NCBI GenBank assembly: GCA_002633005.1
Contig: NMRA01000501.1
Location: 1-64,000, forward strand
Source of the DNA: Phoronis australis
Taxonomy: Eukaryota > Animalia > Phoronida
Reading direction: 5' to 3'
Length of the DNA stretch: 64,000 nucleotides
A program made the position numbers and the translations under genes. The notes below the pieces were generated by a model. The model ran no database searches. It was given only the letters and a program-made list of their open reading frames with translations, and had not been told where the DNA came from. Of this stretch, positions 35,567 to 57,100 are shown piece after piece. Position 1 is the first letter of the stretch, and each line of letters starts with the position of its first letter.

Positions 35567-35668
35567 TTACACCTTTGACCTTTTAGATGATGGTTCGTCG
35601 TTAGAGTCATAGTCATCGTAACTTCGATCATGCGAATCAGGAGAAGTGTTCTGACTACCATCCCCAGC
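35567..35668 (-). CDS. Pbx: Probable last coding exon of Pbx: [33 protein letters not shown]
   Basis: Strong acceptor gttttgtttcag, phase 0, open to TAA at 35569-35567, followed by long sequence that is U-rich in mRNA sense. Confidence 0.7.
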   Translation of the reverse strand, partial: AGDGSQNTSPDSHDRSYDDYDSNDEPSSKRSKV

Positions 35669-38600: not shown

Positions 38601-41600
38601 TGTCTTAGCTAAGTCAGTTTTCATGGAACGGGCCCAAAGTTTCCCTCACCTGGAAATAATCTATGGGATGCCCAAGTAGAAACAAGCAAGGGAAGCATTA
38701 TGGGGGGGTGGAAACGGTCCAGTTACCTGACTCAAATACTACGTGTTACTACAGCCAGAATCGCAGTTGGTTCACGCGCAACAGAAATTTTCATTTAATT
38801 CAAATTTTGGTAATTAATCGAGTATTAAAGTTCGGAGAATTGTCCCTACTGTTGTTTTCAAAATACTGAAGGAACAAAGCTTCTAAAAAACAAAAACAAA
38901 CATTCTCTTTATCTGTATTTCGAATGTGTAATACAAGTGTTTTGAATATATATCTTGACAACTTAATATATTATTTTGCAAAAAATAGGTTTTAGAGCAC
39001 TTTACAGAGTCATTTTTGATATTCCAAAAGTTTTTATTATAATTCAAAATGTCATTAAAATGGTCACCGAAAAGTATGTGAAAATAATGCTAACTGAAAG
39101 TAGAGGGACCTATAAAAACACCAAACAGATCTTTAGGCCTTGGGGCGACTTTCAGTTAAGTGGCAAAAAGCATAAAAACAGTCAACACAAAACCTAAGCA
39201 ATGCATCCACACAACACCTAGCCTGAAACCGAATAAGTAATTGTATCAATACAACAAAACTAGTAATTTCTGCCAAGTTGTTTGTATCGATACAAGATAG
39301 TACCAAAGATAAACAAAGCACTGCATGGGTACAACACAAGCCGAGACCTACCTGTTGATCATAGAGTCCCTCCTGGTAACCCCCCGTTTGAGAGATGATG
39401 TGCCGCATGGCATTCACCTGTGAAGGCATGAGAGGATTAGACACGTTATAAGTCACAGGTTTCAGCCTGATCCGAGAGCAACCAGTCAGAAACAGGTTGT
39501 CTACCCGACTCCAACCACACAAGCAACGATCTTCTGCAATGGTGGTCGTTTATTATTCTCAACGTTTCCACAACAGAGCCACGTTCATGACTCCAGGGAT
39601 CCATACTCCTGGGCTGAGTTGCATGAAGCTTCAAAAGTTATCCGCTGGATAAGTTTGATTGTTGCATGACGTCATGTGCATTGTTCAACAATAACAACAT
39701 GACGCGTGATGATGAGACGTCATTGTTGCTATGCGGCGTATAACTTTTATGCAACTGGACCCTGGTCACAGCCAACATGCCACGGGAACATGAACGTAAA
39801 CAAAGTTTTTATCAAGAACCATTGCAACACTTATTTGACATAGTCTACATTCTCACTCAACAGTCATCATCATCTACGAAATGACAGCCTGTGTTCTTCC
39901 GGCACGTGGCTTTTCATAAAACGTGTCTCTGGCATCTAAAATCCCAAGACACCCTGACCCCACAATAAGCCAACGCAAGCTCCAGAAATAGAAAAACACT
40001 GCAGATCCAAAATTTGTCCTGTAAAACCAGCTAAACCTGAACATACCTGTGACTGCACATTGGCCGTCACACCAGCTTCCCCAGGAGGGTAGTTCTCACC
40101 ATTGACGCTCATAAACTGACCAGCCATCTGTGCCTGCGATGTGCCGTAACCCTGACCACCTGTCAAGGTCCAATAAAGGTGAAAGGTTAGCAACTTTCAA
40201 AAAGGAATTTGTAAAAATAAAATTACGTATCATGTAAATACAACGAATACAGTACAGGTCACAAATATCTCATCCAACGGACAAAATAGGGCAGCAGATG
40301 AACTTCTAGAGGATATTAAAAAATGTGAAAATAAACCAAACGTAACCTCAGAAGACACAGCAGCCGAATACAGGCGTTTGCTTTAAAATTCTTCCACATG
40401 AAATACATGTGTGCACACCTAACATTTTCCACTAACAAATGACATTATACGACATCCAATGTATCAATACTGGAAATGCTTTAGCAACAGCACTAATCTA
40501 GGTCAGCCATGCACGTGCACAAACCCGCACCGTCGGTCTGTCCCACCGCCAGCTTGGCCGCATACAGCTTGGCCTCTTCCTGTGCCTTGCCTATGTTTTT
40601 CTTGTATCGGATCCTCTTGTTGCCAAACCAGTTGGAGATCTGAAACACAAGTTAGCCCGACTGACTAAGCTGCAGGATTGGGGAACGTACCGGGTTCCTG
40701 GACCGCCGCAGCGGCCGTTTTGGCAGCGTAGAGGTTGGCCTCTTCCTGGGCCTTCCCAATGTTCTTCTTATAACGGATTCGCTTGTTGCCGAACCAGTTG
40801 GAGACCTGTAAGACAATTGACAAGTGGCACGACATCACCACAGGGGAAACAACTCCTCAACGACTGAAAGAGAGAACTTTGAAGTACAAGCACAATGAAA
40901 ACAATGCCAAATTTCGAATAAGTTTTGGAAGGGCTGGCTAGCCTGTTGATTTTTTAAACCATTTTTGACGTTCCTAAAATCACAATCAGGACATTTCCAG
41001 AACCAGTTTTGTATAAATTATAATTGCACGTGATCCACTACACGTTGTACCAGACATGCTCAGGCAGCACATGGGCTCATTGAACTTTTCACCTGGAACC
41101 ATTTTTAAGCTTTATTACTATATAGTTAAAACCGAGCTGAGGAGCTAGAGACTTGACTCAAGGGTCTAACAGTGTGCCCTATAGGGACTCGAATCCACAA
41201 CCCTGAATAAAAGAAGCAGACACTCACCACACTAGGCCACACTGCCTCCTTACCAATCTGTACAGGTAAGAGGTCAACTTGCTACTTCTGTTTGTCAAAC
41301 TGTCTCACAATTATGTCTCATTAGGCGAAACAACTCTTATGAATGCTCAACAATTTAACTTTAGAATGCTCGTGTTCTGTTATTCCCCGATGCACACCTG
41401 CACTCATTTTTTTGTGCTGCTGAACTCAAACACACGAGTCGTTTACACAGTAGAGTGTGAACGCAGTATTTTACCTGGGAGACGGTGATCTGGCATTTGC
41501 GGGCCAGTTCTTCTTTGGCCTCTTCGCTGGGGTAGGGGTTACTCAGGTGAGAGTAGAAGTACTCATTCAGGATCTCCGTCGCCTGTTTTGTGAAGTTGCG

Positions 41601-44600
41601 CCTCTTTCGCCTACGAGACAAGACCATTGAATCAGGTCAAGAATACAGGTCACATGGGACAAGATGATGAAAATACTTATAGCCTTGTAGTGACTTTTTG
41701 TTGTAGCACCGTTTAAAAGCCTCAGATGAAAACTGTTGTCCAAGAATGGGTATTTACAGACATTGCATTTGACCTTATCAGGCCAAAAAGCAGACTTGAT
41801 TCCAGCATATTGCATTTGACCTTATCAGGCCAAAAAGCAGACTTGATTCCAGCATATTTGTTTACAAAAAAAATTCAATTTGGTGGTGCAGTATTATTTT
41901 AGCTGCTCACTGTTTCTAAAACAAAAATTAACCCAAGACAAGCAAAATCAATGTGCTGGGCATGACCTCAAACATGTACAATAACTTTGTTCTTCACTGA
42001 CATATTTTGTTAACATTGTTTCCAGTCTCGCATTAATTGACCCATCACCAGGACTTTGAGTGATGGCTTAAGTGACCAATCAGAACGTAGCATTCTTGAC
42101 ACATCTTCGCTTCCAAGCCACCATTTTACCCGACAAACGTTGCCGGGTAAAACTTATTGTTTCCTTGTCTACATTTTGCAAGGGGGAGGAGCTTGCAATA
42201 GGTCAATTACCACCTTATTTAGCACAAACATAATTGCCAAAATTGTCTTTTTCCATTTTTAACAGATGAACACTATAAAATAACAGGAAATTCATCAACT
42301 CTTGTTTTGCGATATCAACATAGAACAAAGTATCCATGTTAGTAGGAGACTAAAACTTTCGGACAGTCAGAAAATTTTTTGATATTTATTTTCATCGAAA
42401 ATTTCGACAAATAGAATTTCACATGCTGGTCATAGTGTGTGTTAAATGAGAGAATCAATGCAGTTAGAAGTAATTCGAGATCGGTCTCATAGCAATATGT
42501 GGACAAAAACAAAAGGTAGTCTTTTGAGATAGGGTTAGTCCATAGCACCTTTAAAAATGACGTAGTTTGGCAGCTAAGCAAAAATATAACAAAGAGATGG
42601 GCATTAGTCGGAAAAAACGTGCCCCCATTTTGAGAACCACTTTGATGCCTGTCATTCAGTGGAGAAAACTGGTTCTCAAAATTCACACAAGTTATATCCG
42701 ACAAGTACCATGGCTTTGATCCAATCTTTGGAACTTTGGGTACTAAAAATTGAACACATTATTGCCACGGACTTGAGCAGGTTAGTACATCAAAAGATCA
42801 AAATGTGAAATAAAGTGTCTTAATTTGTTTGGAAATTTGAATCCCAACGGAATCAGGTTAATGTGTATGGGCGTGAAATCGTAGTGCGCCGTCTGAACAA
42901 TGGTTTGCGGTTTGCCACATTGTTGCAAATGCTCAAAATTTAATGTTGGTTGCTAATAGCTACATCATATAAATCATGCTAAAAGCAAAGTAAATATCGT
43001 TTTTGAGAAAGCTGACAAAATGAAATTTCCCGTCTGCTGTTTAGTGGACCAAACTGAAGAATTTTTATGTAGTAATTCGTCAAAGGTGGACTACTGTGTT
43101 ATGAAAATGAAACAAACAAGCGTCTTTATTGAGAGAGATACAAAACAAACTATGTTTATAAATGAGATAAAAACCATGTGCAACCATAATGTGTGCTACA
43201 TATTATAAAGAATACCGTCAAAAGTTGACCAAACACAAATATGCTTGTTTTGTTAAAAATTTGACAGGATGTATTAGGTACACTCTTTAGTATTGCGTTC
43301 CATCTGAGTGTAGACATATTTTCTAAATAACAGGATGGACTGCCATCAAAGTATCATACAGACAATAAATGTACAAATGTTCTTTTAAGATTTACATTTA
43401 ATTATATGTGACTGCTTTCCATCAAGTTTGGCGTCGTAACGACAATAAGTCAAGCAAATTACAGCAAAACTGACGAGACTGTTTCTATACACTTCATTTC
43501 ATTTGCTAAATAATACCTCGTAGATAGCGTGATAAAAAATAAAATTAAAAGCATGATACACCTATGACAGCATTATTAGCCAATAATGCCATGCACAAGA
43601 CCTGCACAGAGAACATAGTAATCTACTTGAGACAACATTTGAACATAAAAGTTATCAGAGGGTAATTTGTCGACAACACCTTCCACCACTACCTAAGCCA
43701 TTAGCAGCCTCCTGATGGTGGCTTTATGAGGTTTTATGGGAAAACAAGGTCTTAATGGAAAAGAGACAGGATAGCAGCAAAACGGTTGCTTAGCGACCAG
43801 ACCATATGCCAAAGTGGGAGCACTAAGCCAGTGTGTGAGAACACAAGAGATAAGCCCTAAGTGAAGGATGTGGAGATTTATGACCTCTCAGTTGGCATTT
43901 GTGCACATCCGCTGTTGCAATCTCAATCTCGTTGTTGCAATCGTTGCAATCGAGGTTAAGAATTCCGATTATTTAACATTTGTGCAGATGCCAAGTTAGA
44001 AACACAGCATATAACGAAGATGTGAATACGAAGTAGGTTGAAAATTGTTAAATGTTTTTGAGAACAAGTTTTGTAGCAAAAATTATCCGCCGTAAATCAC
44101 TGAATCGTATCCAGTAAGTATAATGCTAGCACTGTCGTTTAGTTCCTGCTATACTTTAGCATAGATAGGAGTCAGAGTGCAAATACATCTTTAATGCTCG
44201 AGACCAGGTTCAATAAGAAAGCTTTACCTAGCCAGTCACTTGAGGTGACAAACCGATATGGCCAACAAATTTGGCTGGTACGGAGACTGAAATGATGCAC
44301 GATCTGCACCGGTTGTTATGCAGGCCATAACGCTTTCGGTAATATGTGTAAGTTGGACAGAGAATCCGAGTAGCGCCATAGTAATTCAGAATGTGGTCAC
44401 TACATTGTTACTGACAACCTTCGTTACTTACCGCGCATCCAAGAACCTTGACCTGAGTATCATGACGGCTTCACACGTACTCTGTTTCAACTGCATCTCG
44501 ATGGCCGCAAACTTCTTACGAATAATACTGACCATGCGGTCTATCTCCTTTGGCGCGATTGGACGGGTGCGACTCTGTTCTCGTAGCAGATTGACCACGT

Positions 44601-47600
44601 GTGTGGTAAACTCGTTACACGCCTGTAAAGGGAGAGCGACATTGTCGGTCAAGGTGGCAAAAACTCAAATACAGTTCGGTTCCAGTTTTCGCTCTCAGGT
44701 TTTCACAATTCTGATCAGAAGTGCAAAGCAATAACTGTGTTTGTCAGTCACAGTTAAAGCATGGAATTAAAAAATATTGAGGACCATCAAAACCAAAAAT
44801 GGCTATTAAATCTACTCTTTGTTTTATTTCTGGTTATATCGCCTTATATTCTTGACTGAATGACATGGAAGCATCGGTTCCACACCAAAACCGTGGTTCC
44901 CGATCATTTTGGGTACCCCCACTACTCTGTCAGCATCTGGCATGCTTTTCTTACCTCTACTGTCGAAATAAAAAGCATGACAGTTTTGAGACATCCAGTG
45001 TGATATACTAACAAAAAGCATGGAGAATGCTGAAGCTGGCCCAACTCTGGAGTTGGCATTGTTAGGTTAATTTGACTCAGCATGCGCACTAGTTTTCAAG
45101 GTCAAAAGCTATTTGACTTCACAAACATCAAATTTCAAGGGTACCAACAATTTTTGAAAAGAAAAAACGACTCAAAAACTATAAAATATCAGAGGAAAAA
45201 CAATGCCCTGCTTAAAAAAAAAAAATCATTTCAAACTTCCTATTGTCTCTAGCACCGAGCTGTAGTCTTTTGACGTCATTAAGACTACAAAATTGATAAT
45301 GAGTGAGCAAATATAATTTTAATTGGCCCCACTGGACCACATTATCAACTTGCTGGTTTGCTCCCAACAGCAGAATGACTGACGCGTCCTTTCTCTGCAA
45401 AGGTCAACCACTGCTGCTGTGAATACATGATTGACAGATATTGCACATAAGGGGGAAGCGGATACACATCTTCCAACATAATGGAGCGTTTACCTAACTT
45501 TCATACTTAGGCTTTAGTGCAGACATAGACCTAAAATACACTACAATTATAATAACTGGAGAAAATAGTATTTCTGCCTTGACTAACAATTCTTCTACCA
45601 GCAAAAATGACTAATACAGTAACGACTCTTATGACTACGGTAGTCAACGAGTCTCCGATGATACCAGTGTTGCCTTCTTGTCACACAATGCTAGGCAGTG
45701 GTACATCCTAATTCATACTGTATGCCACAAGATTTTCTGAAAATGATGACTAACCCCTGGCTAAACTATCAAAGTCATGCTGCTATGCATATCTTTTGAG
45801 TGTAGTTGGATTTTGCTAAAACTCCTATTGTATGTTAAAATGAAGAATTGTAATTTGGTACTATGAATATTCCTGGGCTCCATTCAAACATGAGTCCAGG
45901 TGAAGGTGGAGAAACTTTCAATCCCTATGTCTTATGCATTGTTCTTCCAAACGCTGCCAAACTATTGTTATAAAGTTTCCACTTTTGTAAGAAGGATAGG
46001 ACTTTTATGCTTTAACAAAACAATAAAAATGGTATGAAACGAAAACGAAATGGCTTTAAAAGCATTTTTAAGACTTCCCCCAAGCGAAATCTTTTTATAT
46101 CCTTGTTTTGCTATGACTGCACCTTTCTTTTTTGTTAATTTCAATAAAAAGACATGGTCATGTGACCCGTTTAAGGTCAGACTACTATAAAGTAAAAAAT
46201 AATATTCAACAGGATTTATGAAATCAGGAAAGCCATTCTTTCACGGGTTCAAATCTATAGTGTAGTAGATATTTGGCTACTATGCAGACTTGTCAATAAG
46301 GTCCCGCATAACCTTAAAGAGGTGATTACCTCTTGTAAAAAATCTGCTATCCATCTGGGCAGACAACAGAACACCCACCAAAAGCAGAGCATTGTTGAAC
46401 ATGCCCTCAGTATTTAGACTAGAACGGACCGCTTCATCTATTACATAACTAAGTGCACCTGAGCTACTCAAAAAATTTAAATAGCACCTCATCCAAATTC
46501 ATCCTCTTTTAAACGTATTTCAGAACTTGACCTAATTTAATTTCAAATTACATAACGCGCCCTCTAAGTCATCAAGTGAAATATTCTATTGTCACAGAGT
46601 TACTCAATCCAGCTTCATCAGGAGTGGATATGCCACATAGTGGTCCAACCATCAAAACCACAAGGTGATTAGATCACCTGTGATTGATACATTCGATGAA
46701 AATTAGCCGTCGAAACAGACATTACATGCCATCAATTCGCAATCGAGGACGCCACCGAAGTCATAAATTACAGCGCCAGTTGACTGCGGGGTGCGCGTTG
46801 GGTGATTTATCTTGTAAAAACTATCCTGCCTTCTTGAGGACTACTAGGACTAGAGGAAGATAAATCAGAAAAATTGACAAGGTTTATTAGCCGCTGACAA
46901 AAGGCAGAAATCATTGATTGCCTCCATCTTCAGAATAGCTGCAGCACACTTGAACTTAAGTTTGAAACAGCTAAGTTAGCTATAACCTGTTAATTATCGT
47001 GCATGACCTTCCTTCAACACTGGACAGGAATTCACTTAAAATGAAGCAAGTCCCAACTACTTTTTATTTTCCGTTTCCACACTCAAATGAATCATACTCG
47101 GTGCAAAACGCGTTTCCTTTTCCAAGAGAGTTGCAAAACTAGGTGTATACATGTACACAATATGTATGAAGAGCAGTAAAGTTTAACCAGTCAAGAAACA
47201 ACAGGGCAGACAAATGAAATTTCATTTTAAACTTTAACGCATTCTCAAATGAAATGAGATTTCTCTGAAGTCTCAAAATTTTTTGTCATTTCAATTAAAA
47301 GTGGGTACAATAGAAAGGCGTTCTTGAATCCAACACTGAATTTCCTAAAATGAGTCTTTAATTAGCCATAATTAGTGTTCAAAAACTTACATTCCATCAG
47401 ACTAATTGCATTTCTCTCATGTTAATACACTGGAGTCCACTTAGAGTCATACCCAATAACAAAATATTCAGGTTATTGTCATGAAATGTCAAAAAACCTG
47501 CAAAATATAACGATTTATTGTCATCTGCTCAGATGTCATTAAAAATCACCAAAAACTGACATGAACTATTAGTATGCTACCTTTGCTTTTCTATCTAAAA

Positions 47601-50600
47601 ACAACTTAAAGTCATCTTCAATTCATTTGCCTGATCGGAATTTGGCGCTGGAGGCAAAGGCCTGTCACATGTCATTTCCAGTTTAGATGGGTTAGGCTTA
47701 CTGGACTCTCCACTTAACACGATCAGCTTGTAAGAGTGGTTTCAGTCACTGCCAAGTCACCCCCCTTATTATCATAATTTATGTCAAAACCGAGGTCATA
47801 AAATTAAGTGGGTTCCATTATATTAGATAAATATCACTAAAACAATGTTTTAAAGGAATTGTGGGCATTCATCATGCTTTTGAAAAATGAAAAATGCAAT
47901 TTTGGAAATTATTCATGGCCCAAATTTGCGATATGTGTTGCTGAAATGAAACTCATTGTAATCACTTCAGTGATGTGATTCATGTGAACAGCTTTCCCAT
48001 TTATCTTCATAGAAACATGGCTTTCATAATGAAGTACTATCCAATTCCAAAAACTGCTCTTTTTGGGGCCTTGTCTTGGTATATTCCAGAAGATTCGAAG
48101 CCATTGAAATTCTGTAGACAGTAAATTGTCATTATGAATATGGAAAACGAGAGGCCATAGATATGACGAGACATCTCACTGGTGTCGCTGAACATTAATG
48201 TGAACTATGGAGACCGTGTCACTAGAATCTTTAGTTACTAATCCATTGAAGAAAAACAGTTTTTATAAAATCTGTGACATTTCCCACTTTTGCTAGAATA
48301 TTCTAGAGAAAAAAATTAAATAAACTATCCTGAATTAAGAGCATTTTCCATACTGCATCAAAATTGTCATCATGATTGATAGAGTAGAAAATAACGGGTG
48401 TGCATAGAATCATGAGTGGGATGATTCTTGTGTCAAACCGTACGAGCGATTAACGAGCAAAGACTGCAATCAATAAACTCTGACTTTGTCTCTACGCCCA
48501 GTCATGTCTCCATATTAAAATGACGGCTAATTTGACGTCAGTTCAAATGTTCGGTGAAGGGAATTCATTGATTTCCTCATCTCAATTTTAATTAATAGTC
48601 AATGTGCTCCAGCGGTGAAAATGCTCAAAACAGTCAACGCTACACAATGGTCACGTGAATCTATGGACATTGGCTGGGAAGCAGACGTGCAAAGTTCCTG
48701 ATAGACCTTGTGTAATTTGCCGCTAACACATCACCAGTACACCTGATGCGCACGGACACGACGCACCTACATGCTGTTTAAATAAAATTTGTCCTGCCGC
48801 AAATGGACATAGTGTCATCAATGTGCCACCTGTTGTGAGGTAGAGACATGGTTGCATCCATTGTTTCATTGTACGCTGACAATGCATCTACACAGAAAGC
48901 AGTACTCAAGCAAACCATCTCCAAAACATACACATGGGTATTTACTGCCGCACTGGGCAAGCCTATTCTACTTTTTGATCAAAAACTTCCACCATCATTT
49001 TGAAGTAGTAAGTGTGAAACCGGTCATCTTGCACCATGGCAGTTAGCATGTGTCAACATTAGCATAATAAATGGAGCATAATAAATAGGTCAACCTAACT
49101 TGCCAGCAGACTTTACCATTTTAACCATGGAAGCACATTATATATGTAATTACACCACAACCCTCAATGCCTCCGTCACGTAAACCTTCCGACGACGATC
49201 TGATGAGATTGCAGCAGAAAAACAGTAATATGGGGCGGCAACTGAATGATTATTGACAGCACTGACCTGAACTCCAAACTCAAACTCGGATCATACTCGA
49301 AACTAACCAATCACGCGGCATGATTCAAGTGCCCATTAGTAAGTTCACTCGAAATGTTCATTGCCATTAGTCAATTTTCGAGTCAGTTTCGCATACAGAG
49401 ATATTAGACTCCAGACTAGGCATCAAAAATCCTCAATCGGTATTACAGATCCAATAAAAAATCACCTGATCACACTAGCCATTGGGCTATGAATCAATCT
49501 GTAGGATCAGCCGACTATAGCTCGACACGTGACCAAGGGGATAAATCAGGCAGGTACAGAGGGTATGTTTCACAACTCCGCTAATTTACCTGCTCGTATT
49601 TCTCCAGCTCTGTGTGATAGATCTGCCTGATCTGGCTTAATTTGGCTCGGTAGTCTGAATGTTCAATGGTGTTGTCTGACTGGCCACCAGAGGCCGCTGC
49701 TGTTGCACTGGCCGCTGTCGAGGGACCACCACCTAGGGGCAAAAGAAAGAACAGATTTTCAGCACCCCAATAAATGACAGTATTACCAAGCAAATAGAAT
49801 CTAAAAGTAATGCTGAAAGTAAAGAACACAAAATATGTGTGCTGCACACAATATTCTTCCTGCTGTTCAAATGTTTCCAAACAATAGAGAACTCCAAGCG
49901 ATTAATGCAACTGGTCGTAGATTATAGATTTGAGTTTCTTTTAGCTGGGTTTGCCACAAACAAAGCTAGTTTAATTGGTAACTAGTTCTTGCACACCACG
50001 TGTTACCGTGCAAGTATGTCTGAACTGGTGATACAGTTACTACTGCATTGACCTTTCTACTAATAATGAGAGAGGTTATAGCGGGATAGTGGTCAAACGA
50101 GCAGCACCGCCACCATATGTAGATATATATGATCTGCACTGCATTTCAGAAGTATTTCAAACAGTCAACACTTCAGTTTATCCTAAATGTATGTCAACGG
50201 GTAGCCTCGATCCAAAACTAACTGCCAGCTTCCTCAGCAGACAGTAGACTGCATGTTCTGAACTCCGGATTAGAGGACGTGTGCTCCACGCTCTGAGATG
50301 CGCACGCAATGATTTCCGCTCTCCGCAAAAAGGTCAGTTACTTTACACCTTTCACTACTGCCCGTGCATATATTCTCATGTGCCTATATCCGATATAATT
50401 CCTTTTTCTTCTTCGCATAAAGACGGAGACACTTAATTTGCACCAGCAGGCGCAGGGGACTGGCCATGTGTAGGTGCAAGTCTTACACGGCACGACTCAG
50501 ACTTTGTTTGGCAGTCTAGTAAAAATCCCAAGCCGCCACTAAGTCATGACGCATACATCTGATCAGCTTTTAATACTAATGAAGGTAAACAGACAGGAGT

Positions 50601-53232
50601 CAGAAATAAATGGCAAAAGCTAGAACAGCCAGGCCATTAATCATGCACAGATAAAAGGTTCTCATTGCCTGCTTTACACTTAGGCAGCAGGTGAGCCTGA
50701 ACGAGATATTAGGACCCGCCCCCAAGGGGCAACTGATAGGGCATGCTCCTCAGGTATTCCAACCAAGATCTGTTCTGCTTGCCAGTTCTTAACTTCAGTC
50801 TTTCCCTTTTACATTGCTGCTAACTATGTGTCTTTTGTAGTGGTCACGGCTTTTGCAACCCCCCTCCCCCCCAACAGGGTTTCCTTGTTTTAGCGAGGTC
50901 AATTCTCAGGAATTTTGCTAGGTTGACGAGTTGACGCTATGCTAAGCGTTGAGCCCTGAAAAGAGTGTTTTGGGTCTGTTTTGTCTATTTTCAGTATATT
51001 TCACTCAATAGCCAATGTTCAGGTGAATTCACATAAAAACATTTTCTATTTCACAATGAACACCACAAGTCAAATTCATTGTCCAATTATATTTAAAATA
51101 TCTCTTTGCTTTGATCAAGATATAGGTGGAGTTTCACATAATTATTGGCATATGATCTAATTGAACCCGTAACAATAAGCCAAAAACCTGTTGCATTCTA
51201 CGTAAAAGACCAATTAAGGCACAGTTTGTCATCAGAAACTAGAGAATGTTATTTTCCTGGCAATCAGCAGTAATGGTTGCAATTTTCAAAATCAAACTGC
51301 TTCCTGGTGCCTCTATAATCCAAGAGTGCTGCCATCTTCTGGCAACCACTCTTGGCTGGCAGAGGCGTTGACCTTTCGACCCCAGGCTGTGTGGGTTTCA
51401 GCAGACAAAGGCCACATCAGAAAAGAACAACAAAATGCAAGGCCACAGACCATTAAACCTAATATGGCATACTGCAAAGTGTAACAAAGACTGTCACAGG
51501 CACAGGCTGAATGGTTGGAAGTTATTAGTCCAATTATGGGCAGTGAGTTTATAATGAACTGGCCACAAAGGAAGCATAATTAGAAATTAATCACAATTTA
51601 ACAAGAACATAATGCCATAATGGATGGGTGATGCAACCAACTGCAGAGCTGGGCTAATCCCCTAGTCTGCTGCACAGGACTGTCATATGAAGGGAAATAC
51701 ACATCCAAGGCATGCACAGATCTAGGACCAAGTTATCTGTGAGAAACTGGTCTAATCGATAGTGGGGTCCGAGAATAAATGGTAGGAGGCGCTGAACACG
51801 AAAAATAAACAAAGACATAAACATTGTAACTTAGAACATAAAACATTTCTTCATGCAAATCTCGAATTTACTTAAATTTAAACCACAAAGTGGAAGAAAA
51901 TGGATTTTTTTTTCTGGGAGGGGCGTTACCTGGCAATAAAAAACAAGGGGGCAGTGTACACCACCTTTAGAAACCACCTCGACAATAACCCTGGCTTCCA
52001 CATGCATGGGCGGCACATGCGCTGAAAGAAGCAGGGGGGCTATAGCCCCCTGTGGTGCACCGCCCATACACTGTGGGCAGCGCAGCACTGAAAAAAGGTG
52101 GGGGGGGGCTACAGCACCCCCAGACCCCTATGGTGCTCCGCCCATGACATAACCGTTCTCACTTTCCACAGCATTTCCCCGAGTTTTCCAGAACATTAGA
52201 TTCATATTCCACGAGTTATTTCTTTGATCAAATGCAGTTGATGGAANCACATCCAAGGCATGCATAGATCTAGGACCAAGTTATCTGTGAGAAACTGGTC
52301 TAATCGATAGTGCGGTCCGAGAATAAATGGTAGGAGGCGCTGAACACGAAAAATAAACAAAGACATAAACATTGTAACTTAGAACATAAAACATTTCTTC
52401 ATGGAAATGTCGAATTTACTTAATTTAAACCACAAAGTGGAAGAAAATGGATTTTTTTTTCTGGGAGGGGCGTTACCTGGCAATAAAAAACAAGGGGGCA
52501 GTGTACACCACCTTTACAAACCACCTCGACAATAACCCTGGCTTCCACATGCATGGGCGGCACATGCGCTGAAAGAAGCAGGGGGGCTATAGCCCCCTGT
52601 GGTGCACCGCCCATACACTGTGGGCAGCGCAGCACTGAAAAAAGGTGGGGGGGGGCTACAGCACCCCCAGACCCCTATGGTGCTCCGCCCATGACATAAC
52701 CGTTCTCACTTTCCACAGCATTTCCCCGAGTTTTCCAGAACATTAGATTCATATTCCACGAGTTATTTCTTTGATCAAATGCAGTTGATGGAATTTTTGC
52801 AGATGAATTTCACCAGTGAATAACTGAACACACACACTCATGACATTTTCACCATGCATTCTTTCATTTTTCCTGTTTTATGGAAACTAATTTTTTTGAA
52901 ATCGTTTCTGTCAGCTTTAGGTTTTCCAGTTATCCATGCCATAGAGAATCACATAAATGGTTCAGCGCTTTTGAAGACAATGCCCGTTTCCAGTTGCACC
53001 AGATCAAAACAGCAAAATTTCAAAGACAGTTTGGCTCTGTCTCACAAAAAGCCCTAGCTAAAACATAAGTCACTGTTTCACTTAGAGATAACCACCTCAC
53101 TTGCATCAGCCCTAACCAGTGTTAGCTCACCTTTCTCTGGCCCAGCCACGCCCTCGGCTATCAACATGTTGTCCAGCCTCATGAGTTGGGGGTCCGGGGG
53201 CTCATCCTCCTGTGACCCTCGAATAGACAGTA
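35567..53232 (-). CDS. Pbx: PBX/extradenticle TALE homeobox transcription factor, 5'-partial multi-exon gene. Exons: 53232-53131, 49732-49590, 44622-44432, 41610-41475, [40805-40691 or 40639-40531], 40159-40047, 39417-39352, optional 37795-37736, 35668-35567
   Basis: Spliced translation gives PBC-A end, PBC-B and the TALE homeodomain ([61 protein letters not shown]). All junctions are GT-AG and phase-compatible. Confidence 0.98.
37736..37795 (-). CDS. Pbx: Candidate 60-nt Pbx cassette exon: [20 protein letters not shown]
   Basis: ACTAAC branch-like motif (plus-strand gttagt, 37821-37826), pyrimidine tract gctttcttgccttctag, donor GTATGT, phase 0/0, open frame; no homology support. Confidence 0.55.
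38433..38636. mobile_element. MITE in Pbx intron (related fragment about 35230-35290)
   Basis: TIR tgggcctgttcccagaaactgactta / taagtcagttttcatggaacgggccca. Confidence 0.7.
39352..39417 (-). CDS. Pbx: Pbx exon: [22 protein letters not shown]
   Basis: 66 nt, acceptor ttcacag, donor GTAGGT, phase 0/0; matches PBX1a VDTLRHVISQTGGYSDGL. Confidence 0.9.
39612..39761. mobile_element. Short MITE with CTG TSD in Pbx intron
   Basis: TIR ggctgagttgcat..aaagttat / ataacttttatgcaactggacc; CTG at 39609-39611 and 39762-39764. Confidence 0.6.
40047..40159 (-). CDS. Pbx: Pbx 113-nt exon (counterpart of vertebrate PBX1 exon 7): [38 protein letters not shown]
   Basis: acceptor ttgacag, donor GTATGT, phase 1/0; FMSV..NG..Y and ANVQSQ match PBX1a. 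Confidence 0.92.
40531..40639 (-). CDS. Pbx: Pbx helix-3/helix-4 exon, variant B (tandem duplicate): [36 protein letters not shown](G)
   Basis: 109 nt, acceptor tgtgtttcag, donor GTGCGG, phase 0/1 like variant A; open frame, mostly synonymous differences from variant A. Confidence 0.88.
40691..40805 (-). CDS. Pbx: Pbx helix-3/helix-4 exon, variant A: [38 protein letters not shown](G)
   Basis: 115 nt, acceptor cttacag, donor GTACGT, phase 0/1; canonical PBX recognition helix. Confidence 0.95.
41140..41249 (-). mobile_element. tRNA-derived SINE head
   Basis: Minus strand A-box TGGCCTAGTGTGG and B-box GGATTCGAGTCCC, followed by ccttgagtcaag; no intact cloverleaf. Confidence 0.6.
41475..41610 (-). 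CDS. Pbx: Pbx exon, homeodomain helices 1-2 with TALE loop (LSNPYP)
   Basis: 136 nt, acceptor ctcgtag, donor GTAAAA, phase 2/0; [45 protein letters not shown]. Confidence 0.98.
41762..41858. repeat. Perfect 47-bp tandem duplication
   Basis: attgcatttgaccttatcaggccaaaaagcagacttgattccagcat occurs twice. Confidence 0.95.
44432..44622 (-). CDS. Pbx: Pbx exon, PBC-B: [63 protein letters not shown](R)
   Basis: 191 nt, acceptor tttacag, donor GTAAGT, phase 0/2; conserved PBC-B sequence. Confidence 0.98.
45428..45437 (+). promoter_or_regulatory. PBX-MEIS/PREP decamer TGATTGACAG in Pbx intron
   Basis: Exact match to the known composite motif; function untested. Confidence 0.35.
46681..46900. promoter_or_regulatory. 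Cluster of PBX-HOX-type octamers and MEIS-like half-sites (candidate enhancer)
   Basis: TGATTGAT 46681-46688, TGATTTAT 46803-46810, ATAAATCA 46860-46867, TGACA near 46875 and 46895. Confidence 0.4.
49590..49732 (-). CDS. Pbx: Pbx exon, Ala-rich linker and start of PBC-B: [48 protein letters not shown]
   Basis: 143 nt, acceptor ccctag, donor GTAAAT, phase 1/0; contains the PBX motif [25 protein letters not shown]. Confidence 0.97.
51700..52793. repeat. ~547-bp tandem duplication split by single N (52247); probable unmerged allelic overlap
   Basis: 51700-52246 vs 52248-52793 differ by only a few SNPs/indels. Confidence 0.9.
53131..53232 (-). CDS. Pbx: Pbx exon, end of PBC-A: (V)[33 protein letters not shown](G)
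   Basis: 102 nt, acceptor ttgcag, donor GTGAGC, phase 1/1; near-identical to PBX1 [35 protein letters not shown]. Confidence 0.96.
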
Positions 53233-54130: not shown

Positions 54131-57100
54131 AAAGAAGTCAAAATTTTCTCCGAATTTCCATGAGGCTCTGAGTGGCCAGTGAACAGTTTACATTAGTATT
54201 GGGACAACAAATCAAGGACTACAGTACTATCACTAGGTTCACGTGTGGGACAAAAATGCTAGAAGTTTTTTATTGATAAAATCACAAGTGCTTTAGTCAG
54301 ACAGGAGAGCCATCAACATAGGGGTCACTTTCACTCGCACTTACTTCTCTTCCTCACCACCAGATTCACCAAACAATGAAACCAAGCTTCCTGCCCTGCC
54401 CATGAGTGTAACTTTCAAATAAGCAGTCTGGCTACACATGGTAAACATTGGAACAGTGTAACATGGATCTTTTTGTTCAAGGCTAATGCTGGTACCAAAT
54501 TCCCAAGTATGCTTCAAAATAGTTTGGGCGGGAATGCAGAGTAGAGGAGATGAAGCCCTACCCAGTAATCAAAGTAGAAATGGTCGCTTGGCATTGCCTT
54601 TGATGTCCGATCTTATAAGATAATTTGTACCATTTTCATATGAAAATACCACATTTGGAGATAATCTGACCTGGTCAAAGTAAGATGCACTAACAGACCC
54701 TACTGTTGGCTTATGGAGTAAATAAGGCTTCCACCCAAAACATCAATCGCAATTTGATATTTAACATTCAAAAGCACACAAGGAAATGAAATTTTCGGGT
54801 ACACATACGCTGCCCTTTGCATAGAAACCTTCCTCTCACATCACAGCAAGAACGAGTCTTGTTATGCTACTAAAACCTAAACTTCACAGTATCATTCATT
54901 TCCTACAAAATTTCTAATGAACAACCTAATTGCTATTTACAATGATCATTGGTACCTAATTAGTAATTAATGGCCTGCCACACTTGCATAAATCTCAATG
55001 TTTTGCAAGATCCAATTTGTCATGCACTGTTTACTTGTAATCATGTCCTAGTTAGTCTATCACAAATAATTTCGGACAGAAGATTTTGCGTCAAAGTATT
55101 TCCAAGAAGCTAACAGTCGCAACAGATAGTTACTTATAGTCCTTGATGTTAATGCATTATTCATAGAGTAACTGGTCACCAGATTGTACTGTAATTCTCC
55201 ACACATTTCACACAAAAATAATTAGCAAAATCAAAGGAAATTTGCTTTAACGGGCACAATGGGGCGCACTACCAAATGTCGTTTTATGACATTTACGCAA
55301 AACAACACAGGCTGGTGATCAACCGATTTTTTTAATCTTTATTTCTGTGGAGAAATTCGATCAATAAAATTTCATTTATCGACCCCCATTGAGCACTGAA
55401 TAGGTGAATTGCATTTCTTTAGTTTATTAGGAAAGTGTACAGCGGATCCTCATGTGTACATGTAGCCAGCCAATTTACAGTAAAAATTCTCCAATTTGTG
55501 AGTCTCTAGAATAAGGGACATGGAAACTCACGAAAAATTAAAATTTTATTGATCTTGGAAATTCAGACAAGAGTGATTTTAGCATTCACTATATTTCTCA
55601 AATTTCTAACATTGCATTTTCAGTCCACAGAGTGCGTAATTATGCCATCTTTCAAACGATTCTTGAATTTGGGACAACCANAAAGAAGTCAAAATTTTCT
55701 CCAAATTTCCATGAGGCTCTGAGTGGCCAGTGAACAGTTTACATTAGTATTGGGACAACCAATCAAGGACTACAGTACTATCACTAGGTTCACCTGTGGG
55801 ACAAAAATGCTAGAAGTTTTTTATTGATAAAATCACAAGTGCTTTAGTCAGACAGGAGAGCCATCAACATAGGGGTCACTTTCACCCGCACTTACTTCTC
55901 TTCCTCACCACCAGATTCACCAAACAATGAAACCAAGCTTCCTGCCCTGCCAGTGAGTGTAACTTTCAAATAAGCAGTCTGGCTACACATGGTAAACATT
56001 GGAACAGTGTAACATGGATCTTTTTGTTCAAGGCTAATGCTGGTACCAAATTCGCAAGTATGCTTCAAAATAGTTTGGCCGGGAATGCAGAGTAGAGGAG
56101 ATGAAGCCCTACCCAGTAATCAAAGTAGAAATGGTCGCTTGGCATTGCCTTTGATGTCCGATTTTATAAGATAATTTGTACCATTTTCATATGAAAATAC
56201 CACATTTGGAGATAATCTGACCTGGTCAAAGTAAGTTGCACTAACAGACCCTACTGTTGGCTTATGGAGTAAATAAGGCTTCCACCCAAAACATCAATCG
56301 CAATTTGATATTTAACATTCAAAAACACACAAGGAAATGAAATTTTCGGGTAGACATACGCTGCCCTTTGCATAGAAACCTTCCTCTCACATCATAGCAA
56401 GAACGAGTCTTGTTATGCTACTAAAACCTAAACTTCACAGTATCATTCATTTCCTACAAAATTTCTAATGAACAACCTAATTGCTATTTACAATGATCAT
56501 TGGTACCTAATTAGTAATTAATGGCATGCCACACTTGCATAAATCTCAATGTTTTGCAAGATCCAATTTGTCATGCACTGTTTACTTGTAATCATGTCCT
56601 AGTTAGTCTAACACAAATAATTTCGGACAGAAGATTTTGCAGTCAAAGTATTTCCAAGAAGCTAACAGTCGCAACAGATAGTTACTTATAGTCCTTGATG
56701 TTAATGCATTATTCTTAGAGTAACTGGTCACCAGATTGTACTGTAATTCTCCACACATTTCACACAAAAATAATTAGAAAAATCAAAGGAAATTTGCTTT
56801 AACGGGCACAGAGGGGCGTACTACCAAATGCCGTTTTATGACATTTACGCAAAACAACACAGGCTGGTGATCAACCGATTTTTTTAATCTTTATTTCTGT
56901 GGAGAAATTCGATCAATAAAATTTCATTTATCGACCCCCATTGAGCACTGAATAGGTGAATTGCATTTCTTTAGTTTATTAGGAAAGTGTACAGCGGATC
57001 CTCATGTGTACATGTAGCCAGCCAATTTACAGTAAAAATTCTCCAATTTGTGAGTCTCTAGAATAAGGGACATGGAAACTCACGAAAAATTAAAATTTTA

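Follow-up and report, generated by a model that had tools for sequence, protein, structure and literature searches.

Pbx is the main Hox cofactor, with an extended homeodomain that is almost invariant across animals, and the usual view is of a constant partner with broad expression, specificity being placed on the Hox side (PMC4901127). In the phoronid Phoronis australis, two adjacent versions of the exon coding for the recognition helix are present in a Pbx gene, which raises the question of whether both versions are used, whether they are used one at a time, and whether the resulting proteins differ. We analyzed the stretch of 64,000 nucleotides that contains them (contig NMRA01000501.1 of assembly GCA_002633005.1, positions 1 to 64,000; hereafter, the window). 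The window contains the greater part of this gene, which is on the minus strand, with the following features:

53131..53232, minus strand: Pbx coding exon, second half of PBC-A (tblastn with Lineus and Tubulanus Pbx, 94% identity; splice ends read)
49590..49732, minus strand: Pbx coding exon, linker and start of PBC-B (tblastn; splice ends read)
44432..44622, minus strand: Pbx coding exon, PBC-B (tblastn, 89–98% identity)
41475..41610, minus strand: 136-nt exon, homeodomain helices 1–2 and PYP loop, single copy (tblastn)
40691..40805, minus strand: exon A, canonical helix-3/helix-4 exon with an alanine-rich tail, 115 nt, phase 0/1 (helix-3 motif; A-tail reads; alignment with 1b72_B)
40640..40690, minus strand: intron between A and B, 51 nt, giving an in-frame stop if retained (sequence)
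40651..40655, minus strand: CTAAC, branch-point-like motif, which would put branch A at 40652, at a distance of 39 nt from the exon A donor (motif match)
40531..40639, minus strand: exon B, second copy of the helix-3/helix-4 exon (V>I, N>K, other tail), 109 nt, phase 0/1 (sequence; 15 junction reads)
40508..40513, minus strand: TGCATG, Rbfox-type motif 18 nt downstream of the B donor, a weak lead (motif match)
40047..40159, minus strand: 113-nt common downstream exon, carrying the premature stops of the A-plus-B and double-skip forms (sequence; reads)
39352..39417, minus strand: 66-nt next exon, spliced to the 113-nt exon (loose ends of 13, 6 and 21 reads)
35567..35668, minus strand: probable last Pbx coding exon with stop, a weak match (tblastn E 0.09–0.4)

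Pbx proteins matched the PBC exons upstream of the homeodomain at 89–98% identity (tblastn), and the TALE homeodomain has the PYP loop and a G at position 50, a trait of the PBC class (Table 1 of PMC4901127). The best named matches to the exons of the window were nemertean and bivalve Pbx proteins. The gene looks like a lophotrochozoan-type Pbx, a PBC-class TALE gene. Exons 5' of 53131..53232, for the first part of PBC-A, were not found within the window. The helix-3 motif occurs exactly twice in the six frames of the window, in A and in B, and only one copy of the preceding 136-nt homeodomain exon was found there. Elsewhere in the window, near-identical tandem repeats are present in 57232–54131 (1,551 bp, 98.6%) and 52793–51700 (547 bp, 98.9%), each divided by a single N (at 55681 and 52247); these are probably haplotype duplications of the assembly.

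Exons A and B are adjacent homologues of similar length and the same phases (0/1), each with its own AG acceptor and GT donor, at the coordinates given in a preliminary description of this DNA. As had been claimed there, the reading frame runs on from the 136-nt exon into the 113-nt exon through either exon alone, and inclusion or skipping of both leads to a frameshift and a TGA within the 113-nt exon (at nt 62 for A plus B and nt 49 for the double skip); adjacency, phases, length and splice sites together are those of a duplicate exon. The count of differences was also reproduced: codons 1–29 contain 12 synonymous and 2 replacement differences (V>I at codon 1 and N>K at codon 24), and from codon 30 onward the tails, 7–9 residues long, diverge. 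At the nucleotide level, there are 15 differences between the two exons over 87 nt, 13 of them at third positions. By the Nei-Gojobori method, 13/19 synonymous sites and 2/68 replacement sites differ (Fisher p = 2e-9), with dN of 0.03, dS of about 1.8 (near saturation) and dN/dS of about 0.02. These values agree with the proposal of an old duplication kept under purifying selection; with dS near saturation, the duplication must be old, yet is not datable. The substitution pattern shows that strong purifying selection has acted on B in the frame of the homeodomain.

RNA-seq reads were aligned to positions 39900–40600, which show the 3' junctions of A and B (the 5' junctions fall outside). Three raw-read runs of one study (X2–X4), about 18–19% of each being read, and a contig run (X1) were used; read numbers are small, and the runs carry no tissue or stage labels. 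The junction of B with the 113-nt exon (40531>40159), which had been proposed for such a check, was detected in all three raw runs, with 5, 6 and 4 reads in X2, X3 and X4 (15 in total), GT-AG ends, 3–4 start sites per run and all reads on the strand of the gene. The corresponding A junction (40691>40159) was represented by A-tail joins, 4, 2 and 2 reads in the same runs (at least 8), these being lower bounds, with some reads dropped in alignment, so that the A:B ratio is only rough. On the 3' side, A was observed joined to the 113-nt exon without B. The letters of the A-tail reads match the reverse complement of exon A, bar three positions of the X2 consensus, and most aligned RNA reads were at least 99% identical to the window. 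Exon B is a major form, not noise. A complete lack of B transcripts had been named beforehand as an outcome that would refute the proposal; B junction reads were present in 3/3 raw runs, and B is therefore not a pseudo-exon. The X2 consensus (4 reads, loose ends at 40160, agreement 0.87) departs from the exon A tail at three junction-adjacent positions, which may represent an allele or a mixture of junctions. The intron upstream of the 113-nt exon (40164–40300) had 1–2 reads per run, probably from unspliced pre-mRNA, and the contig run X1 gave no alignment on 39900–40600, a blank that a filter can cause.

With respect to the 5' side, B is conserved in the homeodomain frame and this frame exists only after the 136-nt exon, which closes most of the gap. 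Reading frame and selection together make it very likely that A and B are mutually exclusive, and we consider it highly probable that they are used one at a time, giving two full-length proteins.

The change between these proteins is small: V>I in helix 3, N>K in helix 4 and a short tail. Exon A aligns to residues 48–82 of the PBX1 chain 1b72_B (E 5.5e-15) and is equivalent to this part of the extended homeodomain known from PBX1/Exd structures (PDB 1b72, 1lfu, 1puf, 4cyc). The two exons encode identical residues at codons 2–23, so the same DNA base contacts are predicted for both isoforms. Among 399 fetched copies of the motif, 5 have I at codon 1; with I as a normal residue elsewhere, the conservative change V>I is tolerated. 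Codon 24 is N in 383/399 copies and K in 0/399, which makes N>K unusual; it is the only difference in helix 4, the remainder lying in the tail. In a predicted fold of a fly Exd fragment, residues 46–75 formed one continuous helix, on which the N>K site could not be placed. An increase in DNA affinity through the fourth helix has been reported (bioRxiv 10.64898/2026.06.03.729869), and the extended homeodomain is described in another study as carrying a Hox cooperativity motif on which Hox-cooperative binding depends (PMC6426973). A region of PBX1 is described as protease-sensitive or disordered, and a trypsin-sensitive site is given at residue 308 (PMC4391845); by our mapping, the tail that starts at codon 30 is likely equivalent to the part of PBX1 immediately following this residue. 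Isoform B would differ modestly through N>K, in helix-4-assisted affinity or in Hox cooperativity, and also in its tail, and its use would be tuned by tissue or stage. On the basis of these residues a functional difference is plausible, its expected size being small, and the chances that A and B form a real functional switch in this animal appear to be about even.

Alternatively, A and B may be mutually exclusive and both used while their proteins are nearly equivalent, the pair being kept by splicing regulation that is divided between the copies, such that loss of either copy would lower the Pbx dose in some cells. This explanation, which departs from a functional switch only in the functional step, is possible but on balance rather doubtful. 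It accords with there being just 2 replacements, of which one is conservative, over the 29 codons, with the position of the diverged tail at the edge of the region that the available text of PMC4391845 gives as protease-sensitive or disordered in PBX1, and with the non-canonical copies of other phyla (described below), which share no derived residues with B. However, it leaves aside N>K at a site where K was never found among the 399 fetched copies, and the second copy of annelids keeps two derived residues, Y>F and A>G, over 9 sequences, suggesting selection for a different protein there. A functional switch would be likelier in annelids and in the nemertean Tubulanus than in Phoronis.

Exon B could also be a poison cassette that is included with A and leads to nonsense-mediated decay (NMD), thereby tuning the level of Pbx. 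The premature stop of the A-plus-B form does lie upstream of further junctions, and the reads cover only the 3' side of B, but B is out of frame after A, so that its conservation in the homeodomain frame would be left unexplained, and its junction reads are no fewer than those listed for A, which is unexpected for an NMD substrate; we regard a poison cassette as very improbable. That B is a decaying pseudo-exon or an artefact of two haplotypes assembled in tandem is practically out of the question: although the window does contain the near-identical tandem repeats described above, each interrupted by one N, which look like haplotype duplications, A and B are separated by 15 differences in 87 nt, nearly all of them synonymous, have different tails and no N between them, and each has its own junction reads among reads that mostly match the window at the identity given above.

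For mutually exclusive use of A and B, a steric clash would be the main separator. The intron between the two exons is 51 nt long, a length that the preliminary description does not mention; the six others that were measured range from 371 to about 4,970 nt. The sole CTRAY motif in the 51-nt intron would place branch A 39 nt from the A donor, against a steric threshold of about 50 nt that is vertebrate. In the available text of Hatje et al. 2017 (PMC5740500), a donor-to-branch distance of less than 50 bp was counted as steric in vertebrates, and OGDH branch points were mapped at 25–41 nt according to that of PMC7969005, with a similar vertebrate threshold of about 50 nt. As far as these texts go, OGDH exons 4a/4b (PMC7969005) and 57 human clusters (PMC5740500) resemble the phoronid pair in having a branch closer than 50 nt to the upstream donor and a frameshift upon double inclusion; they differ in that their branch points were mapped or predicted, often with longer introns and distant branch points, whereas the phoronid intron is 51 nt and its branch point a motif match. 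Since the thresholds are vertebrate, we infer the steric step here, and with the branch point taken from a motif, steric exclusion is the probable mechanism. As a back-up, the frameshifted A-plus-B and double-skip transcripts would be removed by NMD, both wrong products having premature stops upstream of further junctions. Introns of 45–60 nt are spliced in many invertebrates, and the 39-nt distance may not block splicing in this animal. RNA docking or selector pairing was not found between the flanking introns, which had only two 9-mer matches. The TGCATG downstream of B is, we presume, an Rbfox-type motif; Rbfox proteins act in exon choice in neurons or muscle, and the motif could favour B in these tissues. 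TGCATG is not enriched in the window (42 matches versus 44.6 expected).

We identified related duplications in other animals, all of them known from protein and not from DNA, in records that are largely automatic annotations. Two helix-3 copies were present in 2 of the 120 matches listed (the best 120 of 2,408): P0002, a gene model of Ridgeia piscesae, and P0001, a read-through ORF with both copies in 5/5 cluster members. In both cases, the copies are about 18 codons apart, corresponding to introns of roughly 53–56 nt if read through, which is firmer for P0001 than for P0002; in P0001 the canonical copy is second. With the second Ridgeia copy as query, 13 more proteins were detected. Twelve of them, among which are those of Dimorphilus and of two Helobdella genes, combine Y>F at codon 12 with A>G at codon 19. 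In an annelid-like cluster, P0219 and P0222 contain the two exon types with identical flanks, all of their 30 differences falling within the exon. Similarly, the RefSeq isoforms X1 and X3 of Tubulanus (P0133/P0134) have 35 differences, all in the helix-3/4 exon, and helix 4 is rewritten. Another nemertean, Lineus longissimus, lacks 27 residues including all of helix 4 in 3/11 isoforms (P0121, P0124, P0129), as use of an inner splice donor would give. The Pbx records of Dimorphilus and both Helobdella genes (P0199, P0203, P0208) have the derived annelid exon type only; the canonical copy may be lost or left unannotated.

In bivalves, a different exon is involved. The helix-1/2 exon, which precedes the helix-3/4 exon, differs by 4–6 residues within isoform pairs of Mytilus (P0138/P0072 and P0140/P0142), Ruditapes (P0034/P0153), Mercenaria (P0152/P0155) and Mya (P0180/P0179). 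Both helix-1/2 versions are present in tandem in three gene models of Mytilus (P0063, P0262, P0263). The listed isoforms had a single helix-3 exon type in Mytilus (15/29 members) and venerids (15/19), as well as in scallops, Mya, Sinanodonta, Octopus, Ptychodera, Glandiceps and Macrostomum. The preliminary description had proposed hemichordates, echinoderms and amphioxus for comparison; this set is probably wrong, since the closest Pbx proteins and the duplicate helix-3 exons of named animals are lophotrochozoan, and the listed isoforms of the hemichordates Ptychodera and Glandiceps have one exon type. A second copy was found in 0/80 metagenome loci (80 kept of 378 matching stretches; in 49 of the 80 an intron precedes the exon, and 39 of those 49 extend at least 300 nt to either side). 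Both the listed isoforms and these loci speak against a universal trait. Close relatives were also sought with the 113-nt exon; 0/25 candidates scored, and no relative with this type of B was found among them. In a search of representative sequences, P0297, the only two-stretch match among 150 listed of 446, was rejected as a degenerate repeat without the WFGN motif.

Other lophotrochozoans appear to share this design, probably because exons of the Pbx homeodomain were duplicated more than once. In a tree of 26 exon peptides (36 columns), the nine annelid-type rows have the two derived residues Y>F and A>G in common (support 91/89); these are absent from Phoronis B, Tubulanus B and the P0001 variant, and the non-canonical copies in other phyla have no derived residues in common with B. 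The 12 non-canonical copies need 4 changes on the tree, although the AU test did not reject grouping them in one clade (p-AU 0.10) on these 36 columns. Together with the inverted arrangement of the copies in P0001 and the duplication of another exon in bivalves, these results moderately favour repeated origins.

Mutually exclusive exons are already known in Meis, another TALE Hox cofactor. Exon 9 of Capitella teleta Meis is a mutually exclusive tandem duplication (Irimia et al. 2011, PMC3140891), located among the ten 5' exons coding for the Meis domain and the homeodomain. It resembles the Phoronis pair in being lophotrochozoan and in having few replacements (5 aa in Capitella); the available text presents it as an isolated case of the MEIS class, in contrast to the Pbx (PBC) exons here, which recur in several phyla. 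In Caenorhabditis elegans, exons 7a and 7b of unc-62 (Meis/Hth) show tissue- and stage-specific use and isoform-specific targets (available text of Van Nostrand et al. 2013, PMC3585033). These exons also encode part of a TALE homeodomain, although it is the N-terminal part, in a Meis protein, whereas A and B encode the recognition helix and the PBC-specific fourth helix and are known from sequence and RNA. No report of duplicated or mutually exclusive exons in Pbx or exd was found in a search that left out subscription papers (e.g., Mukherjee and Burglin 2007) and supplements, nor was a duplicated exon in vertebrate PBX or fly exd reported in the literature searched. The Pbx case and the lophotrochozoan pattern thus appear to have gone unremarked. 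Vertebrate PBX isoforms vary mainly at the termini. With this kind of event known for Meis, and several of the isoforms standing unremarked in RefSeq, the duplicated Pbx exons extend a known mechanism and are not a new one.

Expressed and selected splice variation in the recognition-helix exon makes a cofactor-side share in Hox specificity testable, and the variants offer natural probes of the fourth helix: N>K in Phoronis, Y>F and A>G in annelids, and a rewritten or deleted helix 4 in nemerteans. The recurrence across phyla is of more interest than the small protein change in this animal. Tentatively, and with somewhat less than even confidence, lophotrochozoans may have repeatedly made the near-invariant Pbx homeodomain splice-switchable, one gene giving cell-type-specific cofactors that would alter Hox-Pbx affinity or partner choice. 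The parts of this reading, held jointly with the same reserve, would be a helix-3/4 exon doubled in Phoronis, in P0001, in a nemertean with a rewritten helix 4 and in annelids, where the conserved changes are Y>F for the recognition helix and A>G for helix 4; a helix-4 deletion through an inner donor in Lineus; and a helix-1/2 swap in bivalves. If this is true, splicing in lophotrochozoans does what vertebrates do with Pbx paralogues.

Two further observations concern the helix-1/2 exon. The bivalve variant has an E>D change common to mussels and clams, which hints at one old bivalve duplication. In addition, an Exd-type gene model, P0330, contains three tandem versions of this exon, and helix-1/2 exon clusters may thus also occur outside Lophotrochozoa.
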